Source: Escherichia coli
GTDB lineage: Bacteria > Pseudomonadota > Gammaproteobacteria > Enterobacterales > Enterobacteriaceae
DNA: 64,000 nt
Strand: one strand, 5' to 3'
Assembly: GCF_044324875.1 (NCBI RefSeq)
Contig: NZ_CP172185.1
Positions within the stretch are counted from its first letter, which is position 1. Every line of letters begins with the position of its first letter. Shown piece by piece: positions 12,235 to 63,646 of this stretch. The notes below the pieces were generated by a model, which had not been told where the DNA came from, made no database searches, and was given only the letters and a program-made list of their open reading frames with translations. The position numbers were made by a program, and so were the translations under genes.

Positions 12235-12310
12235 TGGCTCCTCTGACTGGACTCGAACCAGTGACATACGGATTAACAGTCCGCCGTTCTACCGACTGAA
12301 CTACAGAGGA
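12235..12310 (-). tRNA. asnV: tRNA-Asn (anticodon GUU)
   Basis: Reverse complement reads TCCTCTGTAGTTCAGTCGGTAGAACGGCGGACTGTTAATCCG...GGTTCGAGTCCAGTCAGAGGAGCCA, the E. coli tRNA-Asn sequence; gene name assigned by position. Confidence 0.95.
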
Positions 12311-12635
12311 ATCGTGTGAACGGGGCGCATATTAATGGCAGTGCATGGTGATGTCAAAGGGTGAAATGCATTTTTTTGTTTGTTTGCTGTCAATTTCAAC
12401 AAAGTGGTGAGCTTTCAATCTTATTGGTAATGAACCATCGTGGTGCATACCCTCCTTTTATGGGGCAGGGGAACGCGACAGCTGATAAAAAGAGCCAATG
12501 ACGAACCTATCATAATCTCTTATTTGACAGTTGGTTAGCTTGTACATCAACGCCAAAATAAAACTGGCAAGCATCTTGCAATCTGGTTGTAAGTAATGGC
12601 GGCACTTGGGCCGATTCTTATAAACCGGAGGCAAC

Positions 12636-13553: not shown

Positions 13554-13654
13554 GCGTTATATCGGGATGGAATAAGATGCGGGTTTTTATTATTTGTTAT
13601 GCCGGGCATTAGACTTTAACAATAACGGGATATCTGAACTGCCCGGAGTTTACC

Positions 13655-14605: not shown

Positions 14606-14606
14606 C

Positions 14607-14634
14607 AAAAAGCCCGCTATAAAAGCGGGCTTTT
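14607..14634. terminator. Intrinsic terminator hairpin after cbl
   Basis: AAAAAGCCCGC-TATAAA-GCGGGCTTTT immediately after the cbl stop. Confidence 0.6.
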
Positions 14635-14642
14635 CAGAAATT

Positions 14643-14718
14643 TGGCTCCTCTGACTGGACTCGAACCAGTGACATACGGATTAACAGTCCGCCGTTCTAC
14701 CGACTGAACTACAGAGGA
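14643..14718 (-). tRNA. asnU: tRNA-Asn (anticodon GUU)
   Basis: Same 76-nt tRNA-Asn sequence on the minus strand. Confidence 0.95.
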
Positions 14719-14878
14719 ATCGCTGTTGAGGCACATCTTAACGGCGAAAAATCTTTTGTCAAACCCGATTTTTAAATTTCCCAACTGTTTGCCGTTTCTA
14801 TCAACAGTTTGTTGCATTTGCAGACAATTTGTTGGCGAAAATCTTTGCAGCTTTGCTGATTCTCCCTCATTATTTGAA

Positions 14879-16366
14879 ATGTGGTTTCACTTTCTGCAAT
14901 TAAGGTCGGCTTTGAATATCTCCTCTGCTTTACGCCAGGTTGTTCACGGCACTCGCTGGCACGCCAAACGCAAGAGTTACAAAGTGTTGTTCTGGCGCGA
15001 GATAACCCCGCTTGCTGTTCCTATCTTCATGGAGAACGCCTGTGTCCTGTTGATGGGTGTCCTGAGCACTTTTCTGGTCAGCTGGCTGGGAAAAGATGCG
15101 ATGGCCGGCGTGGGATTGGCGGACAGCTTCAATATGGTCATTATGGCATTTTTTGCGGCTATCGATCTTGGTACCACTGTCGTTGTGGCATTTAGTCTCG
15201 GTAAGCGGGATCGACGACGAGCGAGGGTGGCGACGCGGCAGTCATTGGTGATCATGACGTTGTTTGCCGTGCTGTTGGCAACGCTTATTCATCATTTTGG
15301 CGAACAAATTATTGATTTCGTTGCGGGTGATGCCACGACAGAAGTTAAAGCACTGGCGTTGACTTATCTGGAGCTGACGGTACTCAGTTATCCAGCAGCT
15401 GCCATCACTTTGATTGGTAGTGGTGCACTTCGTGGTGCAGGGAATACGAAAATACCGCTACTGATTAACGGTAGCCTGAATATTCTTAATATTATTATTA
15501 GCGGCATATTGATTTACGGCCTTTTCTCCTGGCCGGGACTGGGATTTGTCGGGGCTGGGTTGGGTTTAACCATTTCTCGTTATATTGGCGCAGTGGCAAT
15601 TTTGTGGGTGCTGGCGATTGGTTTTAATCCTGCGCTAAGGATTTCGTTAAAGAGCTATTTTAAACCGCTGAATTTTAGCATTATCTGGGAAGTCATGGGG
15701 ATTGGTATTCCAGCAAGTGTCGAATCAGTATTATTTACCAGTGGTCGGTTATTAACCCAAATGTTCGTTGCCGGGATGGGGACCAGTGTTATTGCCGGAA
15801 ATTTTATCGCGTTTTCAATTGCGGCTCTTATCAACTTACCCGGAAGTGCGCTCGGCTCTGCTTCTACGATCATTACAGGCCGAAGGTTGGGAGTAGGGCA
15901 GATAGCGCAAGCAGAGATTCAGTTGCGGCATGTGTTCTGGCTGTCCACTCTTGGATTAACGGCCATCGCCTGGCTAACGGCTCCCTTTGCCGGGGTTATG
16001 GCATCGTTTTACACCCAGGATCCACAGGTTAAACATGTCGTTGTGATTCTGATTTGGCTAAATGCTTTATTTATGCCTATTTGGTCTGCCTCATGGGTGC
16101 TACCCGCTGGATTTAAGGGTGCTCGCGATGCACGTTACGCCATGTGGGTTTCTATGTTGAGCATGTGGGGTTGCCGGGTTGTAGTCGGTTATGTGCTGGG
16201 AATCATGCTTGGCTGGGGTGTGGTTGGTGTCTGGATGGGAATGTTTGCCGACTGGGCTGTGCGGGCCGTGCTGTTTTACTGGCGAATGGTTACTGGACGT
16301 TGGCTGTGGAAATATCCTCGACCTGAGCCGCAAAAGTGTGAAAAAAAGCCAGTTGTGTCGGAATAA
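14879..16366 (+). CDS. yeeO: MATE-family efflux transporter
   Basis: ORF track frame 14726..16366; start moved to an internal Met to give the roughly 495 aa I recall for YeeO; many transmembrane segments. Confidence 0.85.
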   Translation: MWFHFLQLRSALNISSALRQVVHGTRWHAKRKSYKVLFWREITPLAVPIFMENACVLLMGVLSTFLVSWLGKDAMAGVGLADSFNMVIMAFFAAIDLGTTVVVAFSLGKRDRRRARVATRQSLVIMTLFAVLLATLIHHFGEQIIDFVAGDATTEVKALALTYLELTVLSYPAAAITLIGSGALRGAGNTKIPLLINGSLNILNIIISGILIYGLFSWPGLGFVGAGLGLTISRYIGAVAILWVLAIGFNPALRISLKSYFKPLNFSIIWEVMGIGIPASVESVLFTSGRLLTQMFVAGMGTSVIAGNFIAFSIAALINLPGSALGSASTIITGRRLGVGQIAQAEIQLRHVFWLSTLGLTAIAWLTAPFAGVMASFYTQDPQVKHVVVILIWLNALFMPIWSASWVLPAGFKGARDARYAMWVSMLSMWGCRVVVGYVLGIMLGWGVVGVWMGMFADWAVRAVLFYWRMVTGRWLWKYPRPEPQKCEKKPVVSE

Positions 16367-16466
16367 ACGACAAAGTGCAGATTATTTCAGCAAACGATTT
16401 CAAATTTAAAAAACAGGCTTTGACATTGTGGATGAGCGTCGCTAATATTCGCCTCGTTCTCACGAT

Positions 16467-16542
16467 TCCTCTGTAGTTCAGTCGGTAGAACGGCGGACTG
16501 TTAATCCGTATGTCACTGGTTCGAGTCCAGTCAGAGGAGCCA
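16467..16542 (+). tRNA. asnW: tRNA-Asn (anticodon GUU)
   Basis: Plus-strand TCCTCTGTAGTTCAGTCGGTAGAACGGCGGACTGTTAATCCGTATGTCACTGGTTCGAGTCCAGTCAGAGGAGCCA. Confidence 0.95.
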
Positions 16543-21241: not shown

Positions 21242-22294
21242 ATGTTTTTAGCATCATTGTTGAGACGTATTGCATTTAGTTACTACGATTATAAAGCTAA
21301 TAATTTCAATATTGGAAAAACAGAGTTTGTTGTCATCCATATTCCCGATCAAATTGGCGATGCTATGGCCATCTTTCCAGTTATTCGGGCGCTTGAACTG
21401 CATAAAATTAAGCATCTTTTAATTGTTACTTCGACTATTAATTTAGAAGTCTTTAATGCGCTCAAACTTGAACAGACTAAATTAACATTAGTCACAATGA
21501 CTATGCAGGATCACGCAACATTAAAAGAAATAAAAGATTTAGCGAAGAACATAACACAGCAATACGGTACGCCGGATCTTTGTATAGAGGCGATGCGTAA
21601 AAAGAACCTGAAAACAATGTTATTTATCAGTCAGTTGAAAGCAAAAACGAATTTTCAGGTTGTCGGTTTAACCATGAAGTGCTATTCCCCTTTGTGTAAG
21701 ACTGCGTCCCGGATGGATCAGAATCTCCGGGCTCCCGTACCCATGACATGGGCATTTATGATGCGTGAGGCGGGTTTTCCAGCAGTCAGGCCAATATATG
21801 AATTGCCATTAAGCGAGGATGCACTCGATGAGGTGCGCGAGGAAATGCGATCGTTAGGATCTTACATTGCGCTTAATTTAGAAGGTAGCTCGCAGGAGCG
21901 TACATTTTCATTATCGATTGCAGAAAATCTAATAGCAAAAATTCAAAGTGAAACAGATATACCAATAGTGATCGTTCATGGACCCAAAGGGGAAGATAAA
22001 GCCAGGGAACTAGTGAATAGTTATAATAATGTCTACCGTTTATCCTTGTCACCCTCGATTAAACGTTCAGCAGCAATCATAAAAGATGCTTATATCGCAA
22101 TAACACCTGACACCTCAATATTACATATGGCAAGTGCCTATAATACCCCCGTTGTTGCAATTTATGCTGATTACAAAACGCGATGGCCCGCAATGGCCGA
22201 TGTCTCGGAGTCAGTCGTCGTTGGGCAAAAAATTGACAATATAAGTCTGGATGAATTCGCAAAGGCATTAAAAAGTGTTTTGGCGAGAATATGA
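21242..22294 (+). CDS. yeeL: Glycosyltransferase family 9 (heptosyltransferase-like) protein, intact
   Basis: 350 aa uninterrupted ORF between shiA and yeeJ, at the position of the yeeL pseudogene of K-12 (from memory). Confidence 0.7.
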   Translation: MFLASLLRRIAFSYYDYKANNFNIGKTEFVVIHIPDQIGDAMAIFPVIRALELHKIKHLLIVTSTINLEVFNALKLEQTKLTLVTMTMQDHATLKEIKDLAKNITQQYGTPDLCIEAMRKKNLKTMLFISQLKAKTNFQVVGLTMKCYSPLCKTASRMDQNLRAPVPMTWAFMMREAGFPAVRPIYELPLSEDALDEVREEMRSLGSYIALNLEGSSQERTFSLSIAENLIAKIQSETDIPIVIVHGPKGEDKARELVNSYNNVYRLSLSPSIKRSAAIIKDAYIAITPDTSILHMASAYNTPVVAIYADYKTRWPAMADVSESVVVGQKIDNISLDEFAKALKSVLARI

Positions 22295-22873
22295 GGCAGT
22301 ATTTATGCATATTAATGCCGATCTGTTATGAACGGTGGTGTCATCAATACTCTGTGGCTGGTCAATCATTACAGAAAGCCAGTCTTTGGAGCAAAGCTGT
22401 ACTCACCGGATACGATCATAGTCACATCGAACGCGATTCTGGCGGAACCAAAACATTGTAATGTATTTCACCATCATAAATAAGGCAATCTAAACTTTAA
22501 CTCCCGTTAACTGCCATACATTATTATGAGTGGCGCTGATGTAATTTGTAATAGTGAAATATGAATTAATGTTGTTTGTACGTCCTAACATATCTTCCTT
22601 CTTGATGTAATTAGCTAAACATTAACGTGATTTGACTACATAGCAACAATGGTAGCTATCAAAAATAGCTCATGTACTTCGTTTCCTGCTGGCATGGAAC
22701 AGGTGGTTATATCGTGTGTGAAAGCTTTTATAAAAAGTAAGGAGGCTCGACTATCTTTAAACTAACAGGGGGTATGGGAAAATGCAGGTATATTAATGGA
22801 GCGTTTGACAGCAAACGAATATAAAAGCAGAGCGCCCCGAATGGAGCACTCTGTAAGAAAATATAGCGAAAAA

Positions 22874-31489
<8,616 letters not shown>

Positions 31490-31801
31490 GCTTACCTTCC
31501 CTGAACGAGCTAACATAAATGCGCCCTTTCTAGCACAGCGAAAAAAAGTAAATCCTGATAGCAATATGATTGAAAATTAATAACTTTTCGTTAAGCAGTT
31601 TTGGGTGTGAGTTGCAAGGGGGAGACTACTGAATTACTCAAGTTTTATAATCGAGGGGAAAATGGTGATGGCGTCCATAGCAAAACGCCCTCAACCATTA
31701 AGGTCGAGGGCGCTTAAGATGTCAAAAACCCGCTATCCGTTAAAAAGCAATGCTCAACTAAGGTCAGTGACATTGGGCTAAAAAAGCGAATTTTTAGAAT
31801 T

Positions 31802-31877
31802 TGGCTCCTCTGACTGGACTCGAACCAGTGACATACGGATTAACAGTCCGCCGTTCTACCGACTGAACTACAGAGGA
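31802..31877 (-). tRNA. asnT: tRNA-Asn (anticodon GUU)
   Basis: Fourth copy of the identical 76-nt tRNA-Asn sequence, minus strand. Confidence 0.95.
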
Positions 31878-32867: not shown

Positions 32868-32957
32868 CGGAGAGATGCCGGAGCGGCTGAACGGACCGGT
32901 CTCGAAAACCGGAGTGGGGGCAACTCCACCGGGGGTTCAAATCCCCCTCTCTCCGCC
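32868..32957 (+). tRNA. serU: tRNA-Ser (anticodon CGA)
   Basis: GGAGAGATGCCGGAGCGGCTGAACGGACCGGTCTCGAAAACCGGAGTGGGGGCAACTCCACCGGGGGTTCAAATCCCCCTCTCTCCGCCA: long-variable-arm class II tRNA with anticodon CGA. Confidence 0.9.
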
Positions 32958-33002
32958 AAAATTCAATCACTTATACATCATTAAGTCAGTGACAAAAATC
33001 AC

Positions 33003-33038
33003 ACTTGGAATTACTTGGAATATTTTCTTGGAATATTT
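33003..33038. repeat. Three direct CTTGGAAT repeats next to the attachment site (candidate integrase arm-type sites)
   Basis: CTTGGAAT at about 33003, 33013 and 33026, with GGAATATTTT occurring twice; lies between the tRNA-Ser 3' end and the integrase 3' end. Confidence 0.35.
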
Positions 33039-34036
33039 TCAGGTAACGGGACATCAAGTGTTGGTGAAACTTTAACCTTCCGGTCATAGATTAGCACTTG
33101 CCCTTCGGTTTTGTGACCAGAGAAAAGTTGCTTATCCCGGCTGCTTCCTTCATAGTCTGAAATTCCTTTCGCCTTCAGATCATGAAAGGTGAAGTCGGTT
33201 AAAATACCTGAAACTTTGCCTGCGCGATTTCTTGCTTCTACCCACATTTCGTTAAAGCCTTTGTACATATATCGGTTGCCGTATTGATTGCTGATCACAT
33301 AGGCGGATTTTGGTAACTGTTTTGCTTTTTCGACCGCTGCCTGTAATCGTGGACTCCATGCTTTTATCTGTTTTTTCCCTGTTTTCCCTTGCTGGATAAA
33401 GATCCCGTCGTTTCCAATCTGCTCCCATTTCAGCGATAACACATCGGAAACCCTCGCTGCACACAGATAGGCAATTTCCATTGCGATAAAAACAGGAAGG
33501 GGTGCCACGCTTAATACTGCCTGGTATTCTTTGTCGGTTACATATCGTTCGCGGTTTTTGGCCTTGAATTTACTTACTCCTGCACATGGGTTAGCCTTCA
33601 CGTACCCTCGCTCATACCCCCAACTGTAAACACGGGACATACTGCTTTTTTCATGGTTGGCTTGCGTTTTACTCTGTTCCCCTCTTTTGTCCATGTATCG
33701 ACGGATGTGTTCTGGTTTTATGGAATCCGCTGGTACCTTACCGAATACGGCAAGCAACTTTTTTTGATGTTGCAGATAATCTTTTTGTGTTCTTGGACTA
33801 AGGTCACTGTAACAGGCGCTGGCGAGGAATTTTTCCCACAAGCGACCGAATGTCATTGCACGATCGCGATTATTTACAGTTTCCTCATACTTTTTCCATA
33901 AAGCAGCTAAACCATCCTTGATGGCGGTTAGTGTTACAGATTCTCTGGATGTTGGTTTCCATACATAACTATATTTATTTGGGTATACATTTGGAGGTAA
34001 TTTTTCGTGTTCAGGATTTTTCCTTCGTCTTCCCAT
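33011..34036 (-). CDS. int: Tyrosine recombinase (phage integrase)
   Basis: 341 aa ORF adjacent to the tRNA and reading toward it; C-terminal region has tyrosine-recombinase-like R...HxxR...Y spacing (…FTFHDLKAKGISDYEGS…HKTEGQVLIYDRK…). Confidence 0.85.
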   Translation of the reverse strand: MGRRRKNPEHEKLPPNVYPNKYSYVWKPTSRESVTLTAIKDGLAALWKKYEETVNNRDRAMTFGRLWEKFLASACYSDLSPRTQKDYLQHQKKLLAVFGKVPADSIKPEHIRRYMDKRGEQSKTQANHEKSSMSRVYSWGYERGYVKANPCAGVSKFKAKNRERYVTDKEYQAVLSVAPLPVFIAMEIAYLCAARVSDVLSLKWEQIGNDGIFIQQGKTGKKQIKAWSPRLQAAVEKAKQLPKSAYVISNQYGNRYMYKGFNEMWVEARNRAGKVSGILTDFTFHDLKAKGISDYEGSSRDKQLFSGHKTEGQVLIYDRKVKVSPTLDVPLPENIPRKYSK

Positions 34037-34297: not shown

Positions 34298-36751
34298 TTA
34301 AAAATCAGCCTGATTCGGGATCAGTTTTTGTATAGTGGCTGTTACGTATTTTGCCTGGTGAAGAGCGTCATCCAGAGCATTATGGCGCACGCCTTCGAAT
34401 GGAATTACGCTTCTGGCATTGAAGTCTGTGATTTTCCCCATCTCAACGATTGTGCGTACATCACGATCGTTGCTGTAATGCCACGGACAGGGGATGTCCA
34501 GACGTTCGTATGAGGTGCGCAAAATTGCGTTATCGAACGTTGCGCCATTACCCCACACCTGAACGAATTTTTCATCAGAGTGTTCATTGACGAATTGCCG
34601 AAAACGCAAAAGGGCATCTTTCATTTTTACCTGGTCAGTTAAAATGGCAGCTCTGGCTTCGCTGGACTGCTTCAGCCACCATTCGATGGTGCCACCATCA
34701 GGAACAGCCCCTGTATTCATTGCGTCAGTCAGGCTGATAACGATATAAAATACCGGCCCGATTTCCCCTGTTTCCGGGTCGAAGAAAACCGCACCAATAA
34801 CTACTATGGGTGCATTGGTGTTGGCTCCCATTGTTTCAAGGTCGACTGACAGGTGATTCCATACTCTGCTGGTGGATGTGATTTCACGATGACCGTTCAT
34901 CTTAATTAAGGAATTTTCTGTTTCGCCAGTTTTATTATCGCTGGCGTGGCCCTGAGCGCCGCCAGTGTTCTCCTTGTGCGGATGCTCAGTGCCTTCCGTT
35001 TCCTCCGGATTTTTTTCCTGAGATTCAGCCTGATTTTCTCCATTGAATGTTTCCTGGTATGTTGCGTCACCCATTACTGAGCCACAATCAGGGCAGTTGC
35101 CGCCGCTGGTCTGACCGCAGGCGGTGCAGACTTTTTCCGGTTCCTGTTGCGCTACTGGCTCAGGTTGTTTCGTTTCTGGCTCGTTTTGTAACGCATTTTG
35201 GCTGTTTTGTTCCGCTTTCTGGTCGTTCTGTTCCGTTTCTTGCTGGTTCTGGTTCACTGAATCGCGAGTCTGGACTCCCTTAACCCATTTCAGATCATTC
35301 GGGTCGCTAATCCCTTCAACGAACTCACCACGCGAGGCCGCCAGTAATTTGTCTGCATCGACAGGATTTTTGGGCGGAATGTTTTTCCTAGCTTCATGGA
35401 GTTCTGCCCGCAGTTTCTGATATTTCGCATCAACAGAATTCACCTGCGGCTGAGCATCCAGCGGCTGCGTGTCCGGATGATGTTCAGTTGTATCCGGTTC
35501 CACTGTTTCAGTCGTTGGCTGTTCATCTGCCATTGCGCCAGACGGTTGCGGTTTTTCTTCATCATCCTGTTTTCCTTCTTCTGTTACACGCTGCGGCATT
35601 GGGGCAGAGGAACGACCGCAGGCAATATCCACGATTTCCGGATCAGGGTTGGCATGATCGGTTTCGGTCAGCACTTTATTCAAGTATTCGGTGACGCGCT
35701 GGGGCATAGCCTCTATACCAACCGGTGCTTCTTTCACGGAGGCAACCACGATGGCGCGGGAATAATCCATCCCGCCTGGCATGTTCAGAAAAGCCTTAAG
35801 GAAGACGGAGAAACAGGGATCATTTTCTGCGATAATTTCGTTAACACGTCTGGTATGTGAAGGATGCATGTTGTAAATATCCACATCCATCGAACGAGCC
35901 AGTTTTCCTGTAGCAACATCGAATGCCATTGACGCATTATCATGCACAAAACCTTCGCCGCGATCGGTAAGAATACCGCCGCCAGCGTTAGCGCCGGATG
36001 GTGTGCGACTGATGCGAGAAACACGATTTCCTTTCATCCACTCTTTTGTAAGCAGACCACGATCAGTGTAGTCAGCGTCCAGGTATGCTTCGATGAAGGA
36101 GGTCATCAGTCCCAGGTCTGAATTTACGGGGGCGGGAAAAACTTTGTCAGTGTCCCGCACCAGTTTGTACAAATCCCGAATCTCCAGCGGTTCGAGTTGC
36201 GCTGCTTTATTTGAGATGGCCAGCGCGGTAACGGCGGGAAGTTTTTCTTCCTGTGCGTTATGTAATGAGCGCAGTTCATCCCGCGAAACGTGCGTTACTG
36301 GTTTTTCGCCGCCGTGTTGCGCCAGCCAGCGAACAGGCAGAATCTGACCTGAAACCGGCAGAAGCATATTCTCCTCAATCTCAGTCATGTCTTCGCCATT
36401 AACATTGGTGTTGTCAGTGCTGGCTGGTTTGTCCTGCGCGGATGGCGGAGGCGCGATAAATATCATTGTGATGCCATCTTCGCCGCCTTTTTCATACCGG
36501 TTACAGAATTCGGTATCAAACACGCCTTCCGGTGGAAGGTCATCAACAACGGGCAAATGGACGCGAACAGGTTTTTTAAAGTCGTCTTCATCATAATCGT
36601 TATCATCCATTGCGGTAATGCAGCGGGAGATGGCAACAGATAATTTTTTTGCTGTAGTCCAGTAAAAACCACCTTTAATCCCAAGGCGTTTTCTGACTTT
36701 GTCATTTTTAGCTTCGCAATATAGCGCAAAAGTTTCTTTATCAGTGCTCAT
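34298..36751 (-). CDS. Large early protein with internal Cys4 zinc-ribbon and C-terminal DnaQ-like (DEDDh) 3'-5' exonuclease domain
   Basis: 817 aa; CTACGQ...CPDCG motif; C-terminus has DLETMG ... HNALDDA spacing like DEDDh exonucleases; occupies the recE-like position but I do not see a RecE/lambda-Exo type nuclease motif. Confidence 0.55.
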
Positions 36752-49510: not shown

Positions 49511-49726
49511 ATGAAATCCATGGATAAGATAACAACGGGTGTCGCCTATGGCACCTCGGCAGGCAGTGCCGGGTACTGGTTTTTACAGTGGCTTGATCAG
49601 GTTAGTCCGTCACAGTGGGCTGCTATTGGTGTGCTGGGGAGTCTGGCACTGGGCTTTCTGACTTATCTGACGAATCTGTATTTCAAAATTAAAGATGATC
49701 GGCGCAAAGTGGCGCGGGGAGAGTAG
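49511..49726 (+). CDS. Holin (phage 21 S21 pinholin-like, dual-start motif)
   Basis: [71 protein letters not shown], closely matching what I recall of S21 including the Met-Lys-Ser-Met dual start. Confidence 0.85.
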
Positions 49727-50401: not shown

Positions 50402-50935
50402 ATGAGCACAAAAATCAGATACGGCCTGTCGGCTGCCGTTCTGGCGTTGATTGCTGCAGGTGCATCCGCTCCCGTCATTCTTGACCAGTTTCTGGACGAA
50501 AAAGAAGGTAATCACACTACGGCATACCGTGATGGCTCCGGTATATGGACCATCTGTCGGGGTGCCACGATGGTGGATGGAAAACCCGTTTTTCCCGGTA
50601 TGAAACTGTCGAAGGAAAAATGCGACCAGGTCAACGCCATCGAACGGGATAAGGCGCTGGCATGGGTGGAGCGCAATATTAAAGTTCCACTGACCGAAGC
50701 ACAGAAAGCGGGTATTGCGTCATTCTGTCCCTATAACATTGGCCCCGGTAAGTGTTTCCCGTCGACGTTTTATAAGCGGCTGAATGCCGGTGATCGTAAG
50801 GGCGCATGCGAGGCGATTCGCTGGTGGATAAAAGATGGTGGGCGCGATTGCCGCATACGTTCAAATAACTGCTATGGACAGGTTATTCGTCGTGACCAGG
50901 AAAGCGCATTAGCCTGTTGGGGAATAGATCAGTGA
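50402..50935 (+). CDS. Phage lysozyme (T4-lysozyme fold) with N-terminal signal-anchor, SAR-endolysin-like
   Basis: N-terminal hydrophobic [21 protein letters not shown] followed by catalytic E-x8-D-x5-T ([16 protein letters not shown]). Confidence 0.8.
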
Positions 50936-51399
50936 GCAGAGTCGCCGCGATTATTTATGCTCTGGTTATCTGCACTATCGTCTGCCTGTCGTGGGCGGTC
51001 AATCATTACCGTGATAACGCCATAGCCTACAAAGAACAGCGTGATAAAAAAGTCAGTGAGCTGAAGCAGGCGATCGCCACCATCGCTGACATGCAGCAGC
51101 GTCAGCGTGATGTTGCTGCGCTCGATGCAAAGTACTCGAGAGAATTAGCCAATGCGAAAGCTGAAAATGAAACTCTGCGCGCTGATGTTGCCGCTGGTCG
51201 TAAGCGCCTGCGGGTCAATGTCAGTTGCTCCGAAGCCGTGCGTGAAGCCACCGGACCCACCAGCGTGGATAATGCAACCAGCCCCCGACTGGCAGACACC
51301 GCTGAACGGGATTATTTCACCCTCAGAGAACGGTTGATGACGATGCAGAAGCAACTGGAAGGGGCACAGGAGTATATCCGCACTCAGTGCATTAAGTAG
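50932..51399 (+). CDS. Spanin, inner-membrane subunit (Rz)
   Basis: GTG start overlapping the endolysin stop; [38 protein letters not shown]... closely matches lambda Rz from memory. Confidence 0.8.
51152..51337 (+). CDS. Spanin, outer-membrane lipoprotein subunit (Rz1), embedded in Rz in the +1 frame
   Basis: [21 protein letters not shown]...[32 protein letters not shown]: lipobox and proline-rich region matching lambda Rz1. Confidence 0.8.
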
Positions 51400-51441
51400 C
51401 CTTTTTATCGTGGTAAACATTTCGCAGGGTATGAGGTATTT

Positions 51442-51792
51442 ATGCCATCACGAATCCCACGCGCCTGCCGTAAGCGTGGATGTGCAGGTACAACCACAGA
51501 CAGTTCTGGTTACTGCGATAAACATCGTGGCGAAGGATGGGTACAGCATCAACGCGGACTGAGCCGCCACCAGCGTGGCTATGGCTCGAAATGGGATGCC
51601 ATACGTGCGCGCATACTGAAGCGTGATAATCATCTGTGTCAGAACTGCCTGTGCAATGGGAGAGCTGTTGAAGCCAGAACTGTGGACCACATCATTCCGA
51701 AAGCTCATGGTGGCACGGATGCAGACAGTAACCTGCAGAGTCTGTGCTGGCCCTGTCATAAAGCAAAAACAGCGCGCGAACGCATCAATTGA
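51442..51792 (+). CDS. HNH endonuclease (terminase-associated)
   Basis: 116 aa with ...CQNC...DHIIPKAHGG...NLQSLCWPCH...; directly upstream of the terminase small subunit. Confidence 0.8.
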   Translation: MPSRIPRACRKRGCAGTTTDSSGYCDKHRGEGWVQHQRGLSRHQRGYGSKWDAIRARILKRDNHLCQNCLCNGRAVEARTVDHIIPKAHGGTDADSNLQSLCWPCHKAKTARERIN

Positions 51793-51939
51793 TAACAGCT
51801 CCCATCTGCAGGGGAGGGGCGGGTCAAATCTCTGCAACCCAGGCTGCTCAGTACCGCCGCCTTGCCTTTCCTCGCATCGCCGCAGGTTCGAAAACTTTTT
51901 TTTGGAAAGTTATTAAATGATTGATAGGTAAAACCGATT

Positions 51940-52422
51940 ATGTCAGGACCCCCGAAAACCCCGCCACGCCTGCATTTGATACGAGGCAACCCCTCAAAGC
52001 GCCCCGTTAAAGACCCAAAAAAAACCGCTAAAAAGGATGAAAAAGGTCTCCCTAAAATTCCGCAACATTTAGGGTCGCAGGGGAAGTACTGGTTCAGGCG
52101 AATGGCGGAAGAACTGAATGCGGAAGGGATCATTTCTCAGCTTGATGCGCGTGCACTCGAGTTACTGGTGGAAGCCTACACCGAATACCGGCATTACTGC
52201 GAAACACTCGATGTTGAGGGGTATACCTACCGCACGGAAACGCAGAACGGTGATGTGCTGATTAAGGCACACCCGGCTGCTGCGATGAAAGCGGATGCCT
52301 GGAAGCGGATCCGGGCGATGCTTGCAGAATTTGGTATGTCACCGGCAAGCCGGGCGAAAGTAAATACCGCCGGACCGGATGATGTTGATCCGCTGGCGGA
52401 GCTTTTAAAAGCGAGAGACTGA
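51940..52422 (+). CDS. Terminase small subunit
   Basis: 160 aa ORF immediately preceding and abutting the terminase large subunit. Confidence 0.7.
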   Translation: MSGPPKTPPRLHLIRGNPSKRPVKDPKKTAKKDEKGLPKIPQHLGSQGKYWFRRMAEELNAEGIISQLDARALELLVEAYTEYRHYCETLDVEGYTYRTETQNGDVLIKAHPAAAMKADAWKRIRAMLAEFGMSPASRAKVNTAGPDDVDPLAELLKARD

Positions 52423-54179
52423 TGGCAAAAGTGGCTGACGGGATCCGCTACGCCGAACGTGTTGTTGCAGGAGAAATTGTTGCTGGCGAATTTGTCCGCC
52501 TAGCCTGCCAGCGTTTTCTTGATGATCTGAAGTACGGCGAAGAGCGGGGGATTTATTTCAGTGAACCCCGTGCGCAGCACATCCTGAATTTCTACAAATT
52601 TGTGCCCCATGTGAAAGGGGCGCTGGCAGGCCAGCCCATTGAGTTGATGGACTGGCATGTATTTATCCTCATTAATATTTTTGGTTTTGTCATTCCGCTG
52701 GTGAATGAAGAGACCGGGGAAGTTGTCATGCGCAGCGATGGCAGCGGACGCCCGGTGATGGTGCGCCGGTTCCGGACGGCGTACAACGAAGTCGCCCGTA
52801 AAAACGCAAAATCAACCCTGTCATCGGGTATCGGCCTGTATATGACGGGGGCAGATGGTGAAGGCGGTGCTGAGGTTTATTCAGCCGCAACCACGCGTGA
52901 TCAGGCCAGAATTGTGTTTGAAGACGCCAAAAATATGGTCAGAAAAGCCCGGTCGACACTCGGGCGGTTGTTTGATTTCAACAAGCTGGCGATTTACCAG
53001 GAGCAGAGCGCATCAAAATTTGAGCCGCTTTCCTCGGATGCAAACAATCTGGACGGTCTGAACATCCACTGCGCCATTATTGATGAGCTGCATGCACATA
53101 AAACCCGTGACGTGTGGGACGTTCTGGAAACGGCAACCGGTGCCCGTCTGCAGTCCCTTTTATTTGGTATCACCACGGCAGGGTTTAACAAGGAAGGGAT
53201 TTGTTACGAGCAGCGTGATTACGCCATCAAGGTATTGCGTGGCTATAACAGCGACGTGGAGGGCGCGGTAAAAGACGACTCCTACTTTGCGATTATTTAC
53301 ACCCTCGATGAGGGAGATGATCCGTTTGATGAAACGGTCTGGCAGAAAGCGAATCCCGGCCTGGGCATCTGTAAACGCTGGGATGATCTGCGTCGCCTGG
53401 CGAAAAAAGCGAAAGAACAGGTCTCTGCGCGGGTGAATTTTTTTACCAAACACATGAATGTGTGGGTCACTGCCGAATCAGCCTGGATGGACATGATTAA
53501 GTGGGAGAAGTGCGAATATATTGCTCCACGACATGAGCTGAAAACATATCCCATGTGGGTCGGCGTTGACCTTGCTCATAAGATTGATATCTGTGCAGCG
53601 GCAAAACTCTGGCGAACGGATAACGGGCATGTTCATGCCGATTTTAAATTCTGGCTTCCGGAAGGACGGCTGGAACGATGCTCGCGGCAGCAGGCAGAAC
53701 TTTACCGGAAGTGGGCGGAGATGGATAAGCTGATTCTGACGGATGGTGATGTTATCGATCATGGCCAGATAAAAAGTGACTTACTGGAATGGACTGGTGG
53801 TGAAAACCTCAGGGAACTGGGATTTGACCCGTGGAGCGCGATGCAGTTCAGCCTGGCACTGGCTGAAGAAGGGATACCGCTGGTGGAGGTTCCGCAGACG
53901 GTTCGCAATCTGTCAGAGGCCATGAAGGAAACGGAATCACTGGTCTATGCCGGGCGTTTCCATCACAGCAATCACCCGGTCATGAACTGGATGATGTCTA
54001 ACGTTACGGTGAAACCGGACAAAAACGACAATATCTTCCCGAATAAATGCACGCCGGAAGCCAAAATCGACGGCCCTGTTGCGCTTTTTACAGCCATGAG
54101 CCGCCTTCTGGTAAATGGCGGGGACGTGAATGACTTTCTGTCCACGCTTGATCCTGATGAGGACCTGTTAATTCTGTGA
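52422..54179 (+). CDS. Terminase large subunit
   Basis: 585 aa; size and position fit a terminase ATPase/nuclease. Confidence 0.85.
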   Translation: MAKVADGIRYAERVVAGEIVAGEFVRLACQRFLDDLKYGEERGIYFSEPRAQHILNFYKFVPHVKGALAGQPIELMDWHVFILINIFGFVIPLVNEETGEVVMRSDGSGRPVMVRRFRTAYNEVARKNAKSTLSSGIGLYMTGADGEGGAEVYSAATTRDQARIVFEDAKNMVRKARSTLGRLFDFNKLAIYQEQSASKFEPLSSDANNLDGLNIHCAIIDELHAHKTRDVWDVLETATGARLQSLLFGITTAGFNKEGICYEQRDYAIKVLRGYNSDVEGAVKDDSYFAIIYTLDEGDDPFDETVWQKANPGLGICKRWDDLRRLAKKAKEQVSARVNFFTKHMNVWVTAESAWMDMIKWEKCEYIAPRHELKTYPMWVGVDLAHKIDICAAAKLWRTDNGHVHADFKFWLPEGRLERCSRQQAELYRKWAEMDKLILTDGDVIDHGQIKSDLLEWTGGENLRELGFDPWSAMQFSLALAEEGIPLVEVPQTVRNLSEAMKETESLVYAGRFHHSNHPVMNWMMSNVTVKPDKNDNIFPNKCTPEAKIDGPVALFTAMSRLLVNGGDVNDFLSTLDPDEDLLIL

Positions 54180-54326: not shown

Positions 54327-55553
54327 ATGCTTCTTGATGCTCTGTTTCGCAGTGAACCTCTGGAAAATCCCTCGGTTCCGGTAACCGGAGAGACAGCTGA
54401 GACGGATAATATTTTTGCCCGGGATGTGTATGTCAGTCCGGAAACATCCATGAAGCTGGCTGCTGTCTATGCCTGTATTTATGTTATTTCATCCAGTGTG
54501 GCTCAGATGCCCCTGCATGTGATGCGAAAAACGGATGACCAGGTTCATCCGGCACGCGATCACCCGTTGTTCTGGCTCGTTCATGATGAACCGAATGCCT
54601 GGCAGACCAGCTATAAGTGGCGGGAACTGAAGCAGCGTCATGTGCTGGGGTGGGGCAATGGTTATACGTGGGTAAAACGTAATCGTCGTGGCGAGGTTAC
54701 CAGTCTTGAATGCTGTATGCCATGGGAAACCACGTTACTTAACACCGGTGGGCGTCATACCTACGGGGTGTATAACGAAGAGGGCGCATTTGCGGTAAGT
54801 CCGGACGACATGATCCATATCAGGGCACTGGGAAACAATCAGAAAATGGGACTGAGTCCGATCATGCAGCATGCTGAAACCATTGGCATGGGGATGAGCG
54901 GCCAGCAGTATACCAGTGCCTTTTTTAATGGTAACGCGCGTCCTGCCGGTATTATTTCTGTGAAAAATGAACTGAACGAACAGAGCTGGAGCAGGCTTAA
55001 AAATATGTGGCAGCGGGCGGTGACAGGGCTTCGCAGTCAGGAAAATAAAACTATGCTCCTGCCCGCGCAACTGGATTACCGTGCTCTGACAGTTTCACCG
55101 GTGGATGCTCAGATCATTGATATGACCAAACTGAACAGGTCGATGATTGCCGGGATTTTTAATGTCCCGGCGCACATGATTAATGACCTGGAAAAAGCCA
55201 CGTTTTCGAATATTACACAGCAGGCGATTCAGTTTGTTCGCTACACGATGATGCCCTGGGTTGCGAACTGGGAGCAGGAGCTTAACCGCCGCCTGTTTAC
55301 CCGTACAGAACGGGCTGCCGGGTATTACGTTCGTTTCAACCTCACGGGGTTGCTCCGTGGGACCCCACAGGAGCGTGCGCAGTTCTATCACTTTGCCATT
55401 ACAGATGGCTGGATGAGCCGGAATGAAGCCAGGGCATTTGAGGACATGAACCCGGTTGACGGTCTGGATGAAATGCTGGTCAGCGTAAATGCAGCAAATC
55501 CGTTGAATAACTTTAAAGATACGAAAGGCAAAGAGGAAAAGGACGATGAATGA
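54327..55553 (+). CDS. Portal protein (HK97 family)
   Basis: 408 aa following the terminase. Confidence 0.8.
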   Translation: MLLDALFRSEPLENPSVPVTGETAETDNIFARDVYVSPETSMKLAAVYACIYVISSSVAQMPLHVMRKTDDQVHPARDHPLFWLVHDEPNAWQTSYKWRELKQRHVLGWGNGYTWVKRNRRGEVTSLECCMPWETTLLNTGGRHTYGVYNEEGAFAVSPDDMIHIRALGNNQKMGLSPIMQHAETIGMGMSGQQYTSAFFNGNARPAGIISVKNELNEQSWSRLKNMWQRAVTGLRSQENKTMLLPAQLDYRALTVSPVDAQIIDMTKLNRSMIAGIFNVPAHMINDLEKATFSNITQQAIQFVRYTMMPWVANWEQELNRRLFTRTERAAGYYVRFNLTGLLRGTPQERAQFYHFAITDGWMSRNEARAFEDMNPVDGLDEMLVSVNAANPLNNFKDTKGKEEKDDE

Positions 55554-56148
55554 CCGTGAAATCCGTTGTTACAGCGGTGAGGTGCGTGCTGAGAAGCATG
55601 ACGATAACCCGGCGCACATTATCGGTTATGGATCGGTGTTTGACAGTCGTTCTGAGCTGATATTCGGTTCATTCCGCGAAATCATCCGGCCCGGCGCTTT
55701 TGACGATGTGCTTGGTGATGATGTACGCGCACTGTTTAACCACGATCCTAATTTTATTCTTGGGCGTAGTGCAGCAGGCACGCTGAATCTTTCAGTTGAT
55801 GAACGTGGATTGCGCTATGACATCCAGGCTCCGGAGACACAGACCATTCGTGACCTGGTGCTGACCCCGATGCAACGCGGAGATATTAACCAGTCATCTT
55901 TCGCTTTCCGTGTCGCCCGTGACGGCGAGGAGTGGTATCAGGATGAGGACGGGGTTGTTATTCGCGAGATAACCCGCTTTTCCCGCCTGTTTGATGTCAG
56001 CCCGGTGACATATGCGGCCTATCAGGAGGCAGAATCTGGCGTTCGCTCGATGAAAGCCTGGCAGGAAGCGCGGGCGAGTGGTGCGCTGAAGAAAGCTGTT
56101 AATGAACGAATGGCGCGTGAGCGCCTTTTGACCCTTCTTAATGCATAA
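55546..56148 (+). CDS. Prohead protease (HK97 family)
   Basis: 200 aa between portal and major capsid genes. Confidence 0.75.
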   Translation: MNDREIRCYSGEVRAEKHDDNPAHIIGYGSVFDSRSELIFGSFREIIRPGAFDDVLGDDVRALFNHDPNFILGRSAAGTLNLSVDERGLRYDIQAPETQTIRDLVLTPMQRGDINQSSFAFRVARDGEEWYQDEDGVVIREITRFSRLFDVSPVTYAAYQEAESGVRSMKAWQEARASGALKKAVNERMARERLLTLLNA

Positions 56149-60400: not shown

Positions 60401-63400
60401 GTGAGTGTGGCGACATTACGTGAACTGATTATTAAAATCTCGGCAAATTCCCGGTCATTCCAGTCAGAGATCTCCCGGGCTTCGCGTATGGGGCAGGATT
60501 ACTACCGTACCATGCAGAACGGAGGCCGACAGTCCGCTGCTGTATCCCATGAAATGCGGCGTGCACTGGCAGAAGTGACGGATCAGATAAATACAGCTAA
60601 ATCTTCGGCACTGAACATGGCGGGGGCATTTGCCGGGGCTTTTGCTACCGGTCATCTTATTTCTCTCGCCGATGAGTGGAATTCAGTAAATGCCCGTCTG
60701 AAGCAGGCCTCACAGTCCAGTGATGATTTTCAGTCATCACAGCGTGAATTAATGGCGATCAGCCAGAGAACGGGGACGGCTTTTTCTGATAACGCCAGCC
60801 TTTTTGCCCGCTCTGCAGCTTCCATGCGGGAGTATGGTTACAGTTCTGAGGAGGTACTGAAAGTCACCGAGGCGATCTCCACGGGCCTGAAATTATCCGG
60901 TGCCAGTACAGCAGAAGCCAGTTCGGTGATCACGCAGTTCAGTCAGGCTCTGGCGCAGGGAGTGCTGCGCGGTGAAGAGTTTAACTCGGTGAATGAGAGT
61001 GGCGATCGTGTTATTCGTGCTCTGGCTGCGGGAATGGGAGTTGCCCGTAAGGATCTGAAGGCCATGGCGGATAACGGAAAGTTGACCGCCGATAAGGTTG
61101 TTCCTGCACTGATTAGTCAGCTTGGGGCATTACGTGATGAATATGCGGCAATGCCTGATACGGTTTCATCCTCTGCAACCAAAGTTGAAAACGCCTTTAT
61201 GGCCTGGGTTGGTGGTGCGAACGAGGCAAGCGGAGTGACGAAGACGCTCTCCGGTGTGCTGAATGGTATTGCAGGCAATATTGACACCGTGGCAACCGCT
61301 GCCGGTGCTCTGGTTGCCGTCGGGGTAGCCCGATATTTTGGCAATATGGCGTCGTCTGCTGGATCTGCAACTGCCGGATTAATTACTGCAGCCAGAAACG
61401 AAGTGGCTCTTGCTGAAGTGCAACTTCGGGGGACACAGATAGCAACCGCCAGGGCGCGTGCGGCGGTTTATCGTGCGCAACAGGCGGTTGTTGCTGCTCG
61501 CGGTACCGAAAGGCAGGCCGCAGCAGAAGCGAAGCTGACAGCTGCCCAGGCGTCACTTACCCGTAATATTGCGGCCAGAACAGCGGCACAGACAACGCTG
61601 AATAATGTTACGTCAGTGGGGAGTCGTTTATTAAGTGGCGCGCTGGGGCTGGTTGGTGGTGTGCCGGGGCTTGTCATGCTGGGGGCTGCGGCCTGGTACA
61701 CGATGTATCAGAATCAGGAGCAGGCCAGAGAATCTGCACGCCAGTATGCCGCAACAATCGACGAAATTCGCCAGAAAACGTCGGCAATGTCGCTTCCTGA
61801 AGCGTCAGATAATGAGGAAAAGACGCGACAGGCACTGAAGGAGCAAAACAGGTTAATTGACGAGCAGAAAAGTAAGATTAAATCCTTACAGGAAAAAATT
61901 GCTGGCTATCAGTATGTGCTGGCAAATCCGGGTTGGACAACCGATAACGGTTTTATGATTAACCACATGACGTCGGTAAAAACTGTCACAGAAGGGCTTG
62001 CAGAAGCAACAAATCAACTGGCAGTTGAACAGTCTCGCCTCACTCAAATGCAGGGCAAAGCGCAATCCATTCAGGATGTGCTTGCCGGGCTGGAGGAGCG
62101 ACGGGTGGCGTTGATCCGTCAACAGGCAGCGGAACAAAACAAAGCGTATCAGTCCCTGTTGATCATGAATGGGCAGCATACCGAGTTTAATCGCCTTCTC
62201 GGGCTCGGTAATGAATTACTTCAGCAGCGACAGGGGCTGGTGAATGTACCGTTACGGCTACCACAGGCAACCCTGGATGATAAACAGCAGACCGCACTGA
62301 ATAACAGCGAGCGCGAACTGGCTCTGTCCCGCCTGAAGGGGGAAGCCCGTGAGCGTGCCCGCCTGGGTTATGCTGCGGATGATCTCGGCTTTGTGGGAGA
62401 GGCGTATCAGACAGCAAGACTGAATTATATAAATAACTCACTGGATGCATGGCGAAATAACCAGGCAAATAAACCCAAAGCGCATAAAAAGACCGAAGCG
62501 GAAAAAACAGAAGATACTTATAAGCGACTGATTAAACAGCAAAAAGAGCAAATAGCACTGGCAGGGCAGAATACTGAACTGGCTAAGATGAAATATCAGG
62601 TCAGCAAGGGCGAATTATCAACCCTGTCAGAAGCGCAGAAAAAAACGCTTTTGCAGAATGCAGCACTCATCGACCAGAAAAAGATTCGTGAGCAGCTTGC
62701 TGCGTATGAGAGCAGTCTGGCGGACAGTAATGCCAGTGTCAGAGCATCAAATGAGGCTCAGTTACTGGGATATGGTGAAGGCTCACGGATGCGTGAACGA
62801 CTTCAGGAAATGTGGAGCATCCGGCAGGAGTTTGAGCAGAAAAATAACGAGCTACTGAGACAGTATCAGGCCGGAGAAATTGAAGAAGCCCTGTGGAAAC
62901 AGGAAAAATCTCTGAATGAAAAATATCTGGAAGAGCGTCTCAGCGATCAGCAGGATTATTATGCAAAGGCTGATGCTTTACGCAGTAACTGGAATGCCGG
63001 ACTCCAGGAGGGACTGACGAACTGGGCAGACAGTGCCACCGATTATGCTTCGCAGGCGGCAGATGCTGTCGTTTCCACTATGGACGGGCTGGTATCAAAT
63101 ATTTCCGATGCACTGGCCGGAAATGTTGTGGACTGGAGAAACTGGGGGAGTTCAATTCTCCAGGAAGTTTCAAAAATTCTGATGAACGCTGCCATCGTTA
63201 ACGGGCTGAAGTCACTTTCCAAAAGCATGTCCGGTGCCGGAGGATGGCTTGGTACAGTCGGCGACTGGCTTTCCGGTGCAGTGGCAAACGCAAAAGGTGG
63301 TGTTTATACATCGGCAAATCTGAGTGCTTACAGTAACACCATTGTGGATACCCCGACGTATTTTGCTTTTGCGAAAGGTGCCGGGCTGATGGGCGAGGCC

Positions 63401-63646
63401 GGGCCTGAAGCTATCATGCCACTGACTCGGGCAGCGGACGGCTCTCTTGGAGTCAGAGCCATTGGCAATGTGAATGGTGGCGGTGGATTTGTTTATTCTC
63501 CCGTGTATCACATCAGCATTCAGAATCAGGGGAGCAATGGCGAGATAGATGCGCGCTCAGCCAGGGGACTGGTGGATCTGATCGACAGCAGGGTTGTGTC
63601 AGTTATGCAGTCATCGCGTCGGGATGGAGGATTGTTGAGTGGGTGA
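60401..63646 (+). CDS. Tail tape measure protein
   Basis: 1081 aa, Ala/Gln-rich with long coiled-coil-like stretches, located after the chaperone pair. Confidence 0.85.
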   Translation: MSVATLRELIIKISANSRSFQSEISRASRMGQDYYRTMQNGGRQSAAVSHEMRRALAEVTDQINTAKSSALNMAGAFAGAFATGHLISLADEWNSVNARLKQASQSSDDFQSSQRELMAISQRTGTAFSDNASLFARSAASMREYGYSSEEVLKVTEAISTGLKLSGASTAEASSVITQFSQALAQGVLRGEEFNSVNESGDRVIRALAAGMGVARKDLKAMADNGKLTADKVVPALISQLGALRDEYAAMPDTVSSSATKVENAFMAWVGGANEASGVTKTLSGVLNGIAGNIDTVATAAGALVAVGVARYFGNMASSAGSATAGLITAARNEVALAEVQLRGTQIATARARAAVYRAQQAVVAARGTERQAAAEAKLTAAQASLTRNIAARTAAQTTLNNVTSVGSRLLSGALGLVGGVPGLVMLGAAAWYTMYQNQEQARESARQYAATIDEIRQKTSAMSLPEASDNEEKTRQALKEQNRLIDEQKSKIKSLQEKIAGYQYVLANPGWTTDNGFMINHMTSVKTVTEGLAEATNQLAVEQSRLTQMQGKAQSIQDVLAGLEERRVALIRQQAAEQNKAYQSLLIMNGQHTEFNRLLGLGNELLQQRQGLVNVPLRLPQATLDDKQQTALNNSERELALSRLKGEARERARLGYAADDLGFVGEAYQTARLNYINNSLDAWRNNQANKPKAHKKTEAEKTEDTYKRLIKQQKEQIALAGQNTELAKMKYQVSKGELSTLSEAQKKTLLQNAALIDQKKIREQLAAYESSLADSNASVRASNEAQLLGYGEGSRMRERLQEMWSIRQEFEQKNNELLRQYQAGEIEEALWKQEKSLNEKYLEERLSDQQDYYAKADALRSNWNAGLQEGLTNWADSATDYASQAADAVVSTMDGLVSNISDALAGNVVDWRNWGSSILQEVSKILMNAAIVNGLKSLSKSMSGAGGWLGTVGDWLSGAVANAKGGVYTSANLSAYSNTIVDTPTYFAFAKGAGLMGEAGPEAIMPLTRAADGSLGVRAIGNVNGGGGFVYSPVYHISIQNQGSNGEIDARSARGLVDLIDSRVVSVMQSSRRDGGLLSG

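Follow-up and report, generated by a model that had tools for sequence, protein, structure and literature searches.

Organization of the HNH-terminase locus

The late region of a lambdoid prophage occupies 49.5-56 kb of the 64,000-nucleotide stretch of Escherichia coli DNA analyzed here (the window), with every gene on the + strand. Genes for a P21-type holin (49511-49726), a lysozyme (50402-50935) and Rz (50917-51399, with an embedded Rz1 at 51152-51337) are followed by an HNH endonuclease gene (51442-51792; 116 residues from an ATG start), an intergenic region of 147 bp (51793-51939), and the genes for a small terminase of the P27 family (TerS; 51940-52422, 160 residues, ATG at 51940), a large terminase of the HK97 type (TerL; 52422-54179, 585 residues, with Pfam TerL_ATPase and TerL_nuclease matches), a portal protein (54327-55553) and an S78 prohead protease (55546-56148). 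The HNH gene lies directly 5' of the terminase genes and shares their strand, which is the arrangement of the HK97-type cos packaging module. The PGAP annotation already names both the HNH and the terminase genes, and the module is an ordinary one, since it is carried by 1014 of 5426 complete E. coli genomes.

An earlier note on this DNA had described the intergenic region as a spacer of about 150 bp that contains a G-rich sequence and a T-run. The measured length of 147 bp bears this out, the G-rich sequence GGGGAGGGGCGGG is present exactly at 51811-51823, and the T-run is a tract of eight T residues (T8) at 51896-51903. The spacer is conserved among related phages.

The HNH endonuclease and the terminase subunits

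The product of the HNH gene matches the Pfam HNH profile PF01844 with 56.9 bits against a cutoff of 21.4 (E=2.4e-15). Its translation carries a zinc ribbon at the N-terminus, formed by C9RKRGC14 (C9-x4-C14) and C25DKH28 (C25-x2-H28), as well as the CxxC motifs C66QNC69 and C102WPC105 and the H-N-H residues H83, N97 and H106, an architecture that places it with the zinc-ribbon HNH nicking endonucleases (group 1 of Xu and Gupta, for example N.phiGamma). The protein is 90% identical to L34 of phiP27, aligns over its full length with N.phiGamma (37% identity, E=3e-15) and with the sequence of the GVE2 HNH structure (PDB 5H0M, E=1.1e-14), and is 37% identical to HK97 gp74 across 70 residues (BLASTP, E=2e-11). 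Judged by these alignments, it is a homolog of the packaging-associated HNH nucleases. HK97 gp74 itself stimulates cos cleavage by terminase in vitro (PMC9410871).

The small terminase matches the Terminase_4 profile PF05119 (89.3 bits against a cutoff of 24.7, E=2.2e-25) and is 21-22% identical to the TerS proteins of the phiP27/SfV/SfI type, which belong to the same Pfam family. The large terminase falls in the HK97 lineage: it is 28% identical to HK97 gp2 (E=1e-40) and 37% identical to L36 of phiP27, and its sole sequence match in the PDB is HK97 TerL (6Z6D, E=4.5e-35). The view that this HNH-terminase pair is HK97-like, put forward in the earlier note, is thus in keeping with both the gp74, phiP27 and N.phiGamma homologs of the nuclease and the nearest solved structure of the large terminase. 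Small terminases of the HK97-like type form rings with a central tunnel, through which the DNA is threaded (PDB 8POP).

A predicted cohesive end at the position of known virion ends

A search of the phage collection with this region matched many E. coli phages and, at 82% identity, phiP27, in an alignment that spans the HNH gene and ends at the feature annotated as 'cos-site'. The ten annotated bases of phiP27 are CGCCCGCCCC, preceded by GGGGAGGGGCGGGTCAAATCCCTGCAACCCTGGCTGTCCGGGAC and followed by GTCAAATTTTT, the experimental status of this site resting on the annotation of the record. In SfI, a 10-nt gap, TGCCCGCCCC, was derived from sequenced virion DNA ends (PMC3636060), and the SfI record terminates in ...GGGGAGGGGCGGGTCAAATCTCTGTGACCTGACGTCTTCCGGAC^TGCCCGCCCC (a caret marks a cut or boundary). 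The ends of HK97 are 10-nt 3' overhangs (PMC9410871); its record terminates in ...GGGCAGGGGGGGGGATCAAATCTTCAAAACCTTTGCCCCAAATGAC^CGCCGCCAAA and starts with GTTTGAATTTAACGCTAACCCGATTTTTTT. The record of Bacillus phage Gamma terminates in ...GGGTAGGGGCGGGTCGAAAAACATTCAGGGCGGTCTGTCCGTAC^CGCCGCCCC, and the same nine bases stand at its start.

The spacer between the HNH and TerS genes of the window is homologous to these mapped or annotated sites, with identical spacing. By positional homology, the predicted cohesive end is CGCCGCCTTG (51855-51864, + strand), which is preceded by GTAC, so that AC^CG occupies 51853-51856. The predicted cuts would fall after 51864 in the top strand and between 51854 and 51855 (AC^CG) in the bottom strand, and the virion ends are predicted, by analogy with these homologs, to carry a 3' extension of about 10 nt. 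The right-hand cut is uncertain by about 1 nt, giving a cohesive end of 9 or 10 nt, because the overhang differs from the mapped ones and the terminal repeat of Gamma measures 9 rather than 10 nt. The suggestion in the earlier note that the spacer may hold cos accordingly gains support from its homology with annotated or mapped ends in phiP27, SfI, HK97 and Gamma.

The core of the window site has the HK97 form, namely CGCCGCC followed by three variable bases. These last three bases of the overhang are TGA in most E. coli relatives, AAA in HK97, TAG in mEp235, TAA in the Klebsiella phages and TTA in the Morganella phages, and the P27 overhang, unlike that of the window, ends in CCCC. The window overhang is rare, being shared by a single one of the relatives (L010), and among the records of the phage collection none is linearized at a cos of the same subtype as that of the window (type-B).

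A G-box with fixed spacing to the predicted cohesive end

The left-hand element of the site, which we call the G-box, consists of GGGGAGGGGCGGG followed by TCAAATC (51811-51830, + strand). The sequence GGGGAGGGGCGGG is not unusual in itself (when 2 mismatches are allowed there are 2 matches in the window, against 1.09 expected), and its weight comes from conservation rather than from statistical rarity in the window. In phiP27, SfI, SfV, HK97, mEp235, Bacillus phage Gamma and the phages of Klebsiella and Morganella, a G-box is found at a constant distance from the cohesive end. The window spacer can be aligned position by position with the cos regions of phiP27, SfI/SfV, HK97 and Gamma, which share the layout G-run, TCRAA, 24 nt, AC^CGCC(C)GCC; counted from the T of TCRAA, the overhang begins at a distance of 31 nt in phiP27, SfI, HK97, Gamma, mEp235, Klebsiella and Morganella alike. 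In the window, the 24 nt between TCAAA and AC^CG (51829-51852, + strand) belong to a stretch that, in a scan of viral contigs, is variable in sequence and fixed in length. The core sequence ACCGCCGCC occurs 3 times in the window, and only the copy at 51853 (51853-51861) has a G-box context.

The viral contigs were scanned with the pattern GGGTCRAA-N20-28-ACCGCCGCC, in which the gap was free to vary, and 80 loci were examined, a sample (at least 80 loci) rather than a census, drawn with a pattern that itself presupposes parts of the motif. Among the matches listed, 46 have a gap of 24 nt, and 35 of these have an HNH gene upstream on the same strand, 33 a TerS gene downstream and 29 a TerL gene. 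A gap of 23 nt is found in 13 of the matches listed, with 4 same-strand upstream HNH genes, 3 downstream TerS genes and 4 TerL genes, and the 21 matches listed with any other gap have none of the three; two of these show weak HNH matches on the opposite strand, and terminase is found near none of them. A G-rich tract lies just upstream in nearly all of the listed matches that have an HNH-terminase context, and the matches listed elsewhere are without it. Since, among the matches listed, this context is restricted to gaps of 24 and 23 nt, the G-box forms one unit with the GC-rich core and the gap of fixed length, and this unit occurs specifically between HNH and terminase genes.

Conservation of the G-box and of its spacing is thus evident across the sequences compared, and the constant distance between G-box and nick, across bases that vary freely, suggests that both are contacted by a protein complex. 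On these alignments, the G-rich block is an upstream element about 30-45 bp to the left of the predicted cleavage site, rather than the cleavage site itself, and it is possibly a left-hand element comparable to lambda cosQ. Cue and Feiss (1998) reportedly found that, at termination, nicking of the bottom strand depends on cosQ. At the position of the G-box, phiSLT has a tract that is C-rich on the top strand, which speaks against a simple oriented recognition site, so a structural role for the G/C tract is also possible. No description of a G-box at a fixed distance was found in the literature searched, several key papers being outside that search.

The right-hand half of the site varies with the small terminase

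To the right of the cohesive end lies a block, ATCGCCGCAGGTTCGAAAACTTTTTTTT (51876-51903, + strand, or +12 to +39), which is a candidate for a cosB-like TerS site and is built of CGCCGCAGG, then AAAA, a single C and T8. The right half of the window site, CCTTTCCTCGCATCGCCGCAGGTTCGAAAACTTTTTTTT, is common to mEp235 and to Klebsiella and Morganella phages with TerS proteins 62-75% identical to that of the window; the flanks of the block diverge among these phages, and the block is replaced by other sequence where the TerS subtype differs. Its invariance in the alignment is partly forced by the selection pattern, which required ACCGCCGCC, CC after the cohesive end and A-Y-CGCCGCAGG; the GGTT-GAAAAC-T-run part of the right half was not required by that pattern.

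In the viral-contig sample, one left half is joined to at least 4 right halves, each of which tracks a TerS subtype. The same division is seen in the comparison with phiP27, in which DNA homology stops at cos: as the HNH protein is 90% identical to its phiP27 counterpart, against 22% for TerS and 37% for TerL, and homology ends at this point, cos is a mosaic of two parts. In addition, hybrid loci such as L088, L083 and L087 combine a P27-like left side with a window-like right side, and the sequences of these hybrids show recombination within the cohesive-end sequence itself.

HK97 TerS binds 15 bp, from +15 to +29, where it recognizes T16, the G at position 21 and, by its shape, an A-tract (PMC11331095). 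The sequence of the HK97 record, CTAACCCGATTTTTT, has T16, a C/G pair at 21 and a T-tract at 24-30, and this agreement with the published positions confirms the numbering. All right-half types seen have, at a similar offset, a core rich in CG and then A and T tracts (ACCCGCGAAAAA in SfI, CGCAGAAAAATCCGTTTTT in Gamma and CGCCGCAGGTTCGAAAACTTTTTTTT in the window), and because this arrangement is shared, the T-run is probably part of the TerS recognition site. The right half of the window site (51876-51903) probably corresponds to the HK97 TerS site, which makes it a candidate binding site, and the T-run would lie to the right of the cleavage site, probably within the predicted small-terminase binding region.

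Other features of the spacer

Several other kinds of element were sought in this region. There were no Rfam family matches in 51300-52100 at a permissive threshold, and the spacer contains neither a terminator-like site nor a promoter-like site on the + strand, the single promoter-like match being on the minus strand and no better than those in shuffled sequences. A stable hairpin or cruciform was rejected on the basis of the single-strand DNA fold of the spacer (-16.4 kcal/mol, where shuffled sequences average -18.0; z=+0.56), and direct or inverted repeats that might serve as TerS sites were limited to chance-level repeats of 6-7 nt. An ORF of 43 residues (51789-51920) was dismissed as coding, since the variation in T-run length (T6-T9) and the other indels seen in relatives would shift its frame; a second ORF, of 97 residues (51623-51916), also traverses the spacer. 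The window has three G-tracts only, and their homologs vary; a G-quadruplex, judged by eye, is not a favored reading.

A match to the IHF consensus, WATCAANNNNTTR (TATCAATCATTTA), is found on the minus strand at 51914-51926. Matches to this consensus are not enriched in the window (4, against 3.23 expected), and the one in the spacer is retained in both E. coli spacer variants and absent from spacers of the Klebsiella and mEp235 types. An IHF site at this position is a weak lead only.

A model for cos cleavage and packaging

Our interpretation of these observations, to which we assign a probability of roughly 85%, is that the spacer serves an HK97-like lambdoid prophage as its cos site, where the HNH gene product is predicted to act as an accessory nuclease partnering the terminase. 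In a first step, TerS would bind the right-hand block (about +12 to +39) beside its own gene, as is suggested by the way in which this block changes with the TerS subtype and by the position of the HK97 site (+15 to +29). TerL and the HNH protein would then assemble on the GC-rich core, where TerL would cut the top strand after 51864 and the HNH protein would nick the bottom strand at CG^GT (AC^CG in the top strand, 51854/51855), leaving CGCCGCCTTG as a 10-nt 3' overhang. Packaging would proceed rightward from the TerS side, and at the next cos the motor would reach the G-box ahead of the cut site, because the G-box is on the last-packaged side of cos. There the nuclease complex would use the G-box, which is placed like lambda cosQ, for recognition or positioning on the left-hand side, a function that we infer by analogy; with the 24-nt gap fixed, TCAAA would lie about three helical turns from the nick.

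The assignment of strands in this model derives from the known nicking site of N.phiGamma together with models in the literature. Xu and Gupta found that N.phiGamma and N.phiE2 nick CG^GT (AC^CG), with close variants for several other enzymes (PMC3592412); their paper drew no connection to cos. The bottom strand of the window at the predicted nick reads 5'-...GGCGGCG^GTAC-3', and the same motif is found at the cos boundary in Gamma (GTAC^CGCC) and just past the HNH gene in GVE2 (GGAC^CGGCGGGGGC); in phiSLT, the start of the annotated cos is at most one base away from GTAC^CGG. A division of labor in which HNH and TerL each nick one of the two strands has already been proposed (PMC11331095, among others). 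The present comparison suggests that the HNH protein is the bottom-strand nickase at cos, which fits the published two-nuclease model and adds to it which strand would be nicked. This assignment stays provisional, since HK97 gp74 and other packaging HNH proteins have been reported to be non-specific in vitro (PMC3592412, among others), the boundary in SfI is AC^TG and not AC^CG, and the specificity was measured in Gram-positive homologs.

A broader reading, which we hold tentatively and at somewhat less than even odds, is that HNH-dependent phages of Gram-negative and Gram-positive hosts share an ancient cos grammar with the G-box as one of its indispensable sub-sites, in which it would act as the hitherto missing determinant of specificity or positioning and as the functional counterpart of cosQ. 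Under this grammar, a G/C tract and TCRAA would be followed by a rigid 24 nt (about three helical turns) and by AC^CG, where HNH would nick the bottom strand; TerL would cut the top strand 9-10 nt further on, and the TerS-specific right half would be swappable exactly at the cohesive end. If this were true, the place at which the overhang begins on its left would be explained by the CG^GT specificity with which the N.phiGamma-type enzymes nick in vitro.

Alternative explanations

The main residual doubt is whether this prophage is active. The site could be a true cos homolog that persists as an uncut relic in a defective or cryptic prophage, as many E. coli prophages are defective, and a near-identical annotated prophage in E. 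coli TUM1886 has an integrase annotated as frameshifted; the rarity of the overhang among relatives and the end of the window ahead of the tail fiber genes, which leaves only part of the element in view, point the same way. In the window, however, the prophage, which adjoins tRNA-Ser (32869-32958) and mtfA, has a full-length, open integrase ORF (33011-34036, 341 residues), its ORFs are open from there through the tape measure gene (60401-63646), those for packaging and head proteins are all intact, and every conserved position of cos is kept. Relatives with 96-97% DNA identity, vB_EcoM-606R7 and phi467, have moreover been recovered as phage genomes and deposited as such, and we consider the relic improbable.

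The HNH gene might instead be a selfish, free-standing homing endonuclease that merely adjoins the terminase genes, in which case the spacer would be ordinary intergenic DNA that includes the ribosome-binding site of TerS, and packaging would depend on a site elsewhere. HNH genes are mobile in phage genomes, which has led to caution about inferring a role from position (PMC12315714), and several records annotate the gene as a 'homing endonuclease'; against this, the order HNH-cos-TerS is kept in phages of E. coli, Klebsiella, Morganella, Bacillus, Geobacillus and Staphylococcus, the mapped or annotated ends of relatives fall in this very spacer, and gp74 stimulates cleavage at cos, so that this explanation appears very improbable. 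Headful packaging, with the conserved spacer as a pac or regulatory site, is less probable still, as the proteins with which TerL groups, HK97 gp2 and phiP27 L36, belong to cos phages, and the GC-rich core matches known cohesive-end sequences.

Implications of a predicted cos region

It is established that, in HK97-like phages, an HNH gene lies beside the terminase genes with cos between them. What may be new, and is a modest lead from these comparisons, is the fixed spacing of a G-box shared by phages of hosts that range from E. coli to Bacillus, together with the apparent coincidence of the overhang boundary with a measured HNH nicking site. For annotation, the 147-bp intergenic region can be labeled as an HK97-like cos region with a predicted cohesive end at 51855-51864, which helps to define the ends of the prophage genome, to predict mobilizable cosmids and satellites and to design packaging signals for engineered particles. 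The arrangement also amounts to a testable rule (G-box, 24-nt gap, AC^CG, a GC-rich 9-10-mer, and a CG core with A/T tracts matched to TerS subtype) that could automate cos annotation in the approximately one fifth of E. coli genomes with the module, and it bears on the question, raised in structural papers on HK97, of which nuclease cuts which strand.

Comparison with known systems

The gene order of the window is that of HK97 (HNH gp74, TerS gp1, TerL gp2), and the left half of the HK97 site likewise consists of a G-run, TCAAATC, 24 nt and AC. The HK97 core, CGCCGCC and 3 nt, forms the last 10 nt of the genome record, and a T-tract lies to its right, as in the window. In phiP27, SfV and SfI (and SfII and SfIV), the G-box and its spacing are nearly identical to those of the window and a 10-nt GC-rich end is found at the same position, but the core of phiP27, SfV and SfI is xGCCCGCCCC, compared with CGCCGCCTTG, and their right half, GTCnTTTTTTTAYACCCGCGAAA, is unlike that of the window.

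Bacillus phage Gamma and Geobacillus virus E2 (GVE2) also have a zinc-ribbon HNH nickase beside cos and a TerS of the P27 family. Gamma has GGGGCGGGTCGAA, 24 nt and GTAC^CGCCGCCCC, GVE2 has GGGGCGGTC...GGAC^CGGCGGGGGC, and in both the cohesive end is followed by CGC(A)G, an A-tract, a T-tract and TerS. They differ from the window in their Gram-positive hosts and, for Gamma, in a terminal repeat of 9 nt, and the CG^GT specificity was measured for N.phiGamma and N.phiE2, whereas that of the window enzyme is predicted.

A lambda-type cos was considered and rejected, as the spacer is without the lambda cosN sequence GGGCGGCGACCT, an HNH gene is present, TerS belongs to Terminase_4 and TerL is of the HK97 type; lambda has 12-nt 5' overhangs and uses Nu1 and gpA without an HNH protein. 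No homology to the flanks of lambda cos was seen, the likeness of the G-box to cosQ being one of position, and the sole shared sequence is the lambda cosN heptamer GGCGGCG, which is found on the bottom strand of the window cos. Nevertheless, the cosQ-cosN-cosB arrangement of lambda follows the same three-part logic, in which a GC-rich nicking site has an element upstream of it and the small-terminase site downstream, and in lambda, as would be the case in the window, the small-terminase site adjoins the terminase genes.

Variation in and around the packaging site of related phages

Directly after the T-run of the cos region, the spacers of mEp235 and of the Klebsiella and Morganella phages carry a GGGG-N1-3-CCCC palindrome, equivalent in position to nucleotides 51904-51915 of the window and recorded at the related loci L008, L090, L091 and L092, among others. 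Its variants (GGGGTCCCC, GGGGATCCCC, GGGGTTACCCC and CCGGGATACCCGG) preserve the symmetry. The spacers of the E. coli type, by contrast, are without this palindrome and have in its stead a match to the IHF consensus.

In some relatives, 0.7-5 kb of additional DNA separates the cos core from the terminase genes, as seen in three IMG/VR viral contigs: the small terminase gene (TerS) starts 4.7 kb past cos in L110 and 0.8 kb past it in L116, while in L104, where a search for a TerS match found none, the large terminase gene (TerL) starts 5.5 kb past cos. The extra DNA in these contigs points to insertion of cargo at the packaging site itself. On the other side of the HNH endonuclease gene, the interval from Rz in several close relatives holds a bor-type 'virulence determinant' gene and approximately 0.8 kb of extra DNA (for example, positions 1129-1422 of phage vB_EcoS-813R8, L003); this insertion is absent from the window, in which the interval, between 51399 and 51442, is only 42 bp.

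A rearrangement of a different kind is found in phage Evi (L002, LR597642), in which the segment 1880-2095 corresponds to window positions 51727-51905 and 52017-52139. Here, an inverted copy of TerS codons ~26-66 stands in place of the 3' end of the HNH gene, the G-box, the cohesive-end core and the candidate TerS binding site, the inversion being joined at a T8GG/CCA8 microhomology, and the record carries a second 'terminase small subunit' annotation on the opposite strand. The Evi arrangement is probably an assembly artefact or derives from a defective genome.

Annotation of related records

In Morganella phage IME1369_02 (L098, KY653119), the gene annotated as 'holin' (22086-22439, minus strand) is a homolog of the packaging HNH, with 73% identity to the window protein (tblastn, E=2.7e-56). 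The annotated 'homing endonuclease' of this phage, 1.5 kb away from the homolog, is an unrelated HNH_3 protein. The RefSeq record of Geobacillus virus E2 (L222/L223, NC_009552) is linearised within the HNH gene, and the HNH ORF is consequently split across the record ends. TerS is annotated there as starting at 134, a position upstream of the cos-like sequence; the true start is probably near 250.

The predicted cos core and comparison with lambda cosN

Three copies of ACCGCCGCC, a 9-mer of the predicted cos site, are present in the window, versus 0.63 expected; the two additional copies (35975-35983 and 55285-55293) lie within coding regions and have no G-box context. Elsewhere in the window, the DNA upstream of the prophage (12235-16542 and 22874-31877) includes four tRNA-Asn genes and, at 22874-31564, a minus-strand ORF of 2,896 aa.

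Read on its bottom strand, the predicted cos site (51853-51864) is CAAGGCGGCGGTAC and has the heptamer GGCGGCG in common with lambda cosN, which PMC12315714 quotes as GGGCGGCGACCT. The two sites carry the heptamer on opposite strands with respect to the terminase genes, and its common occurrence may reflect either coincidence or deep ancestry.
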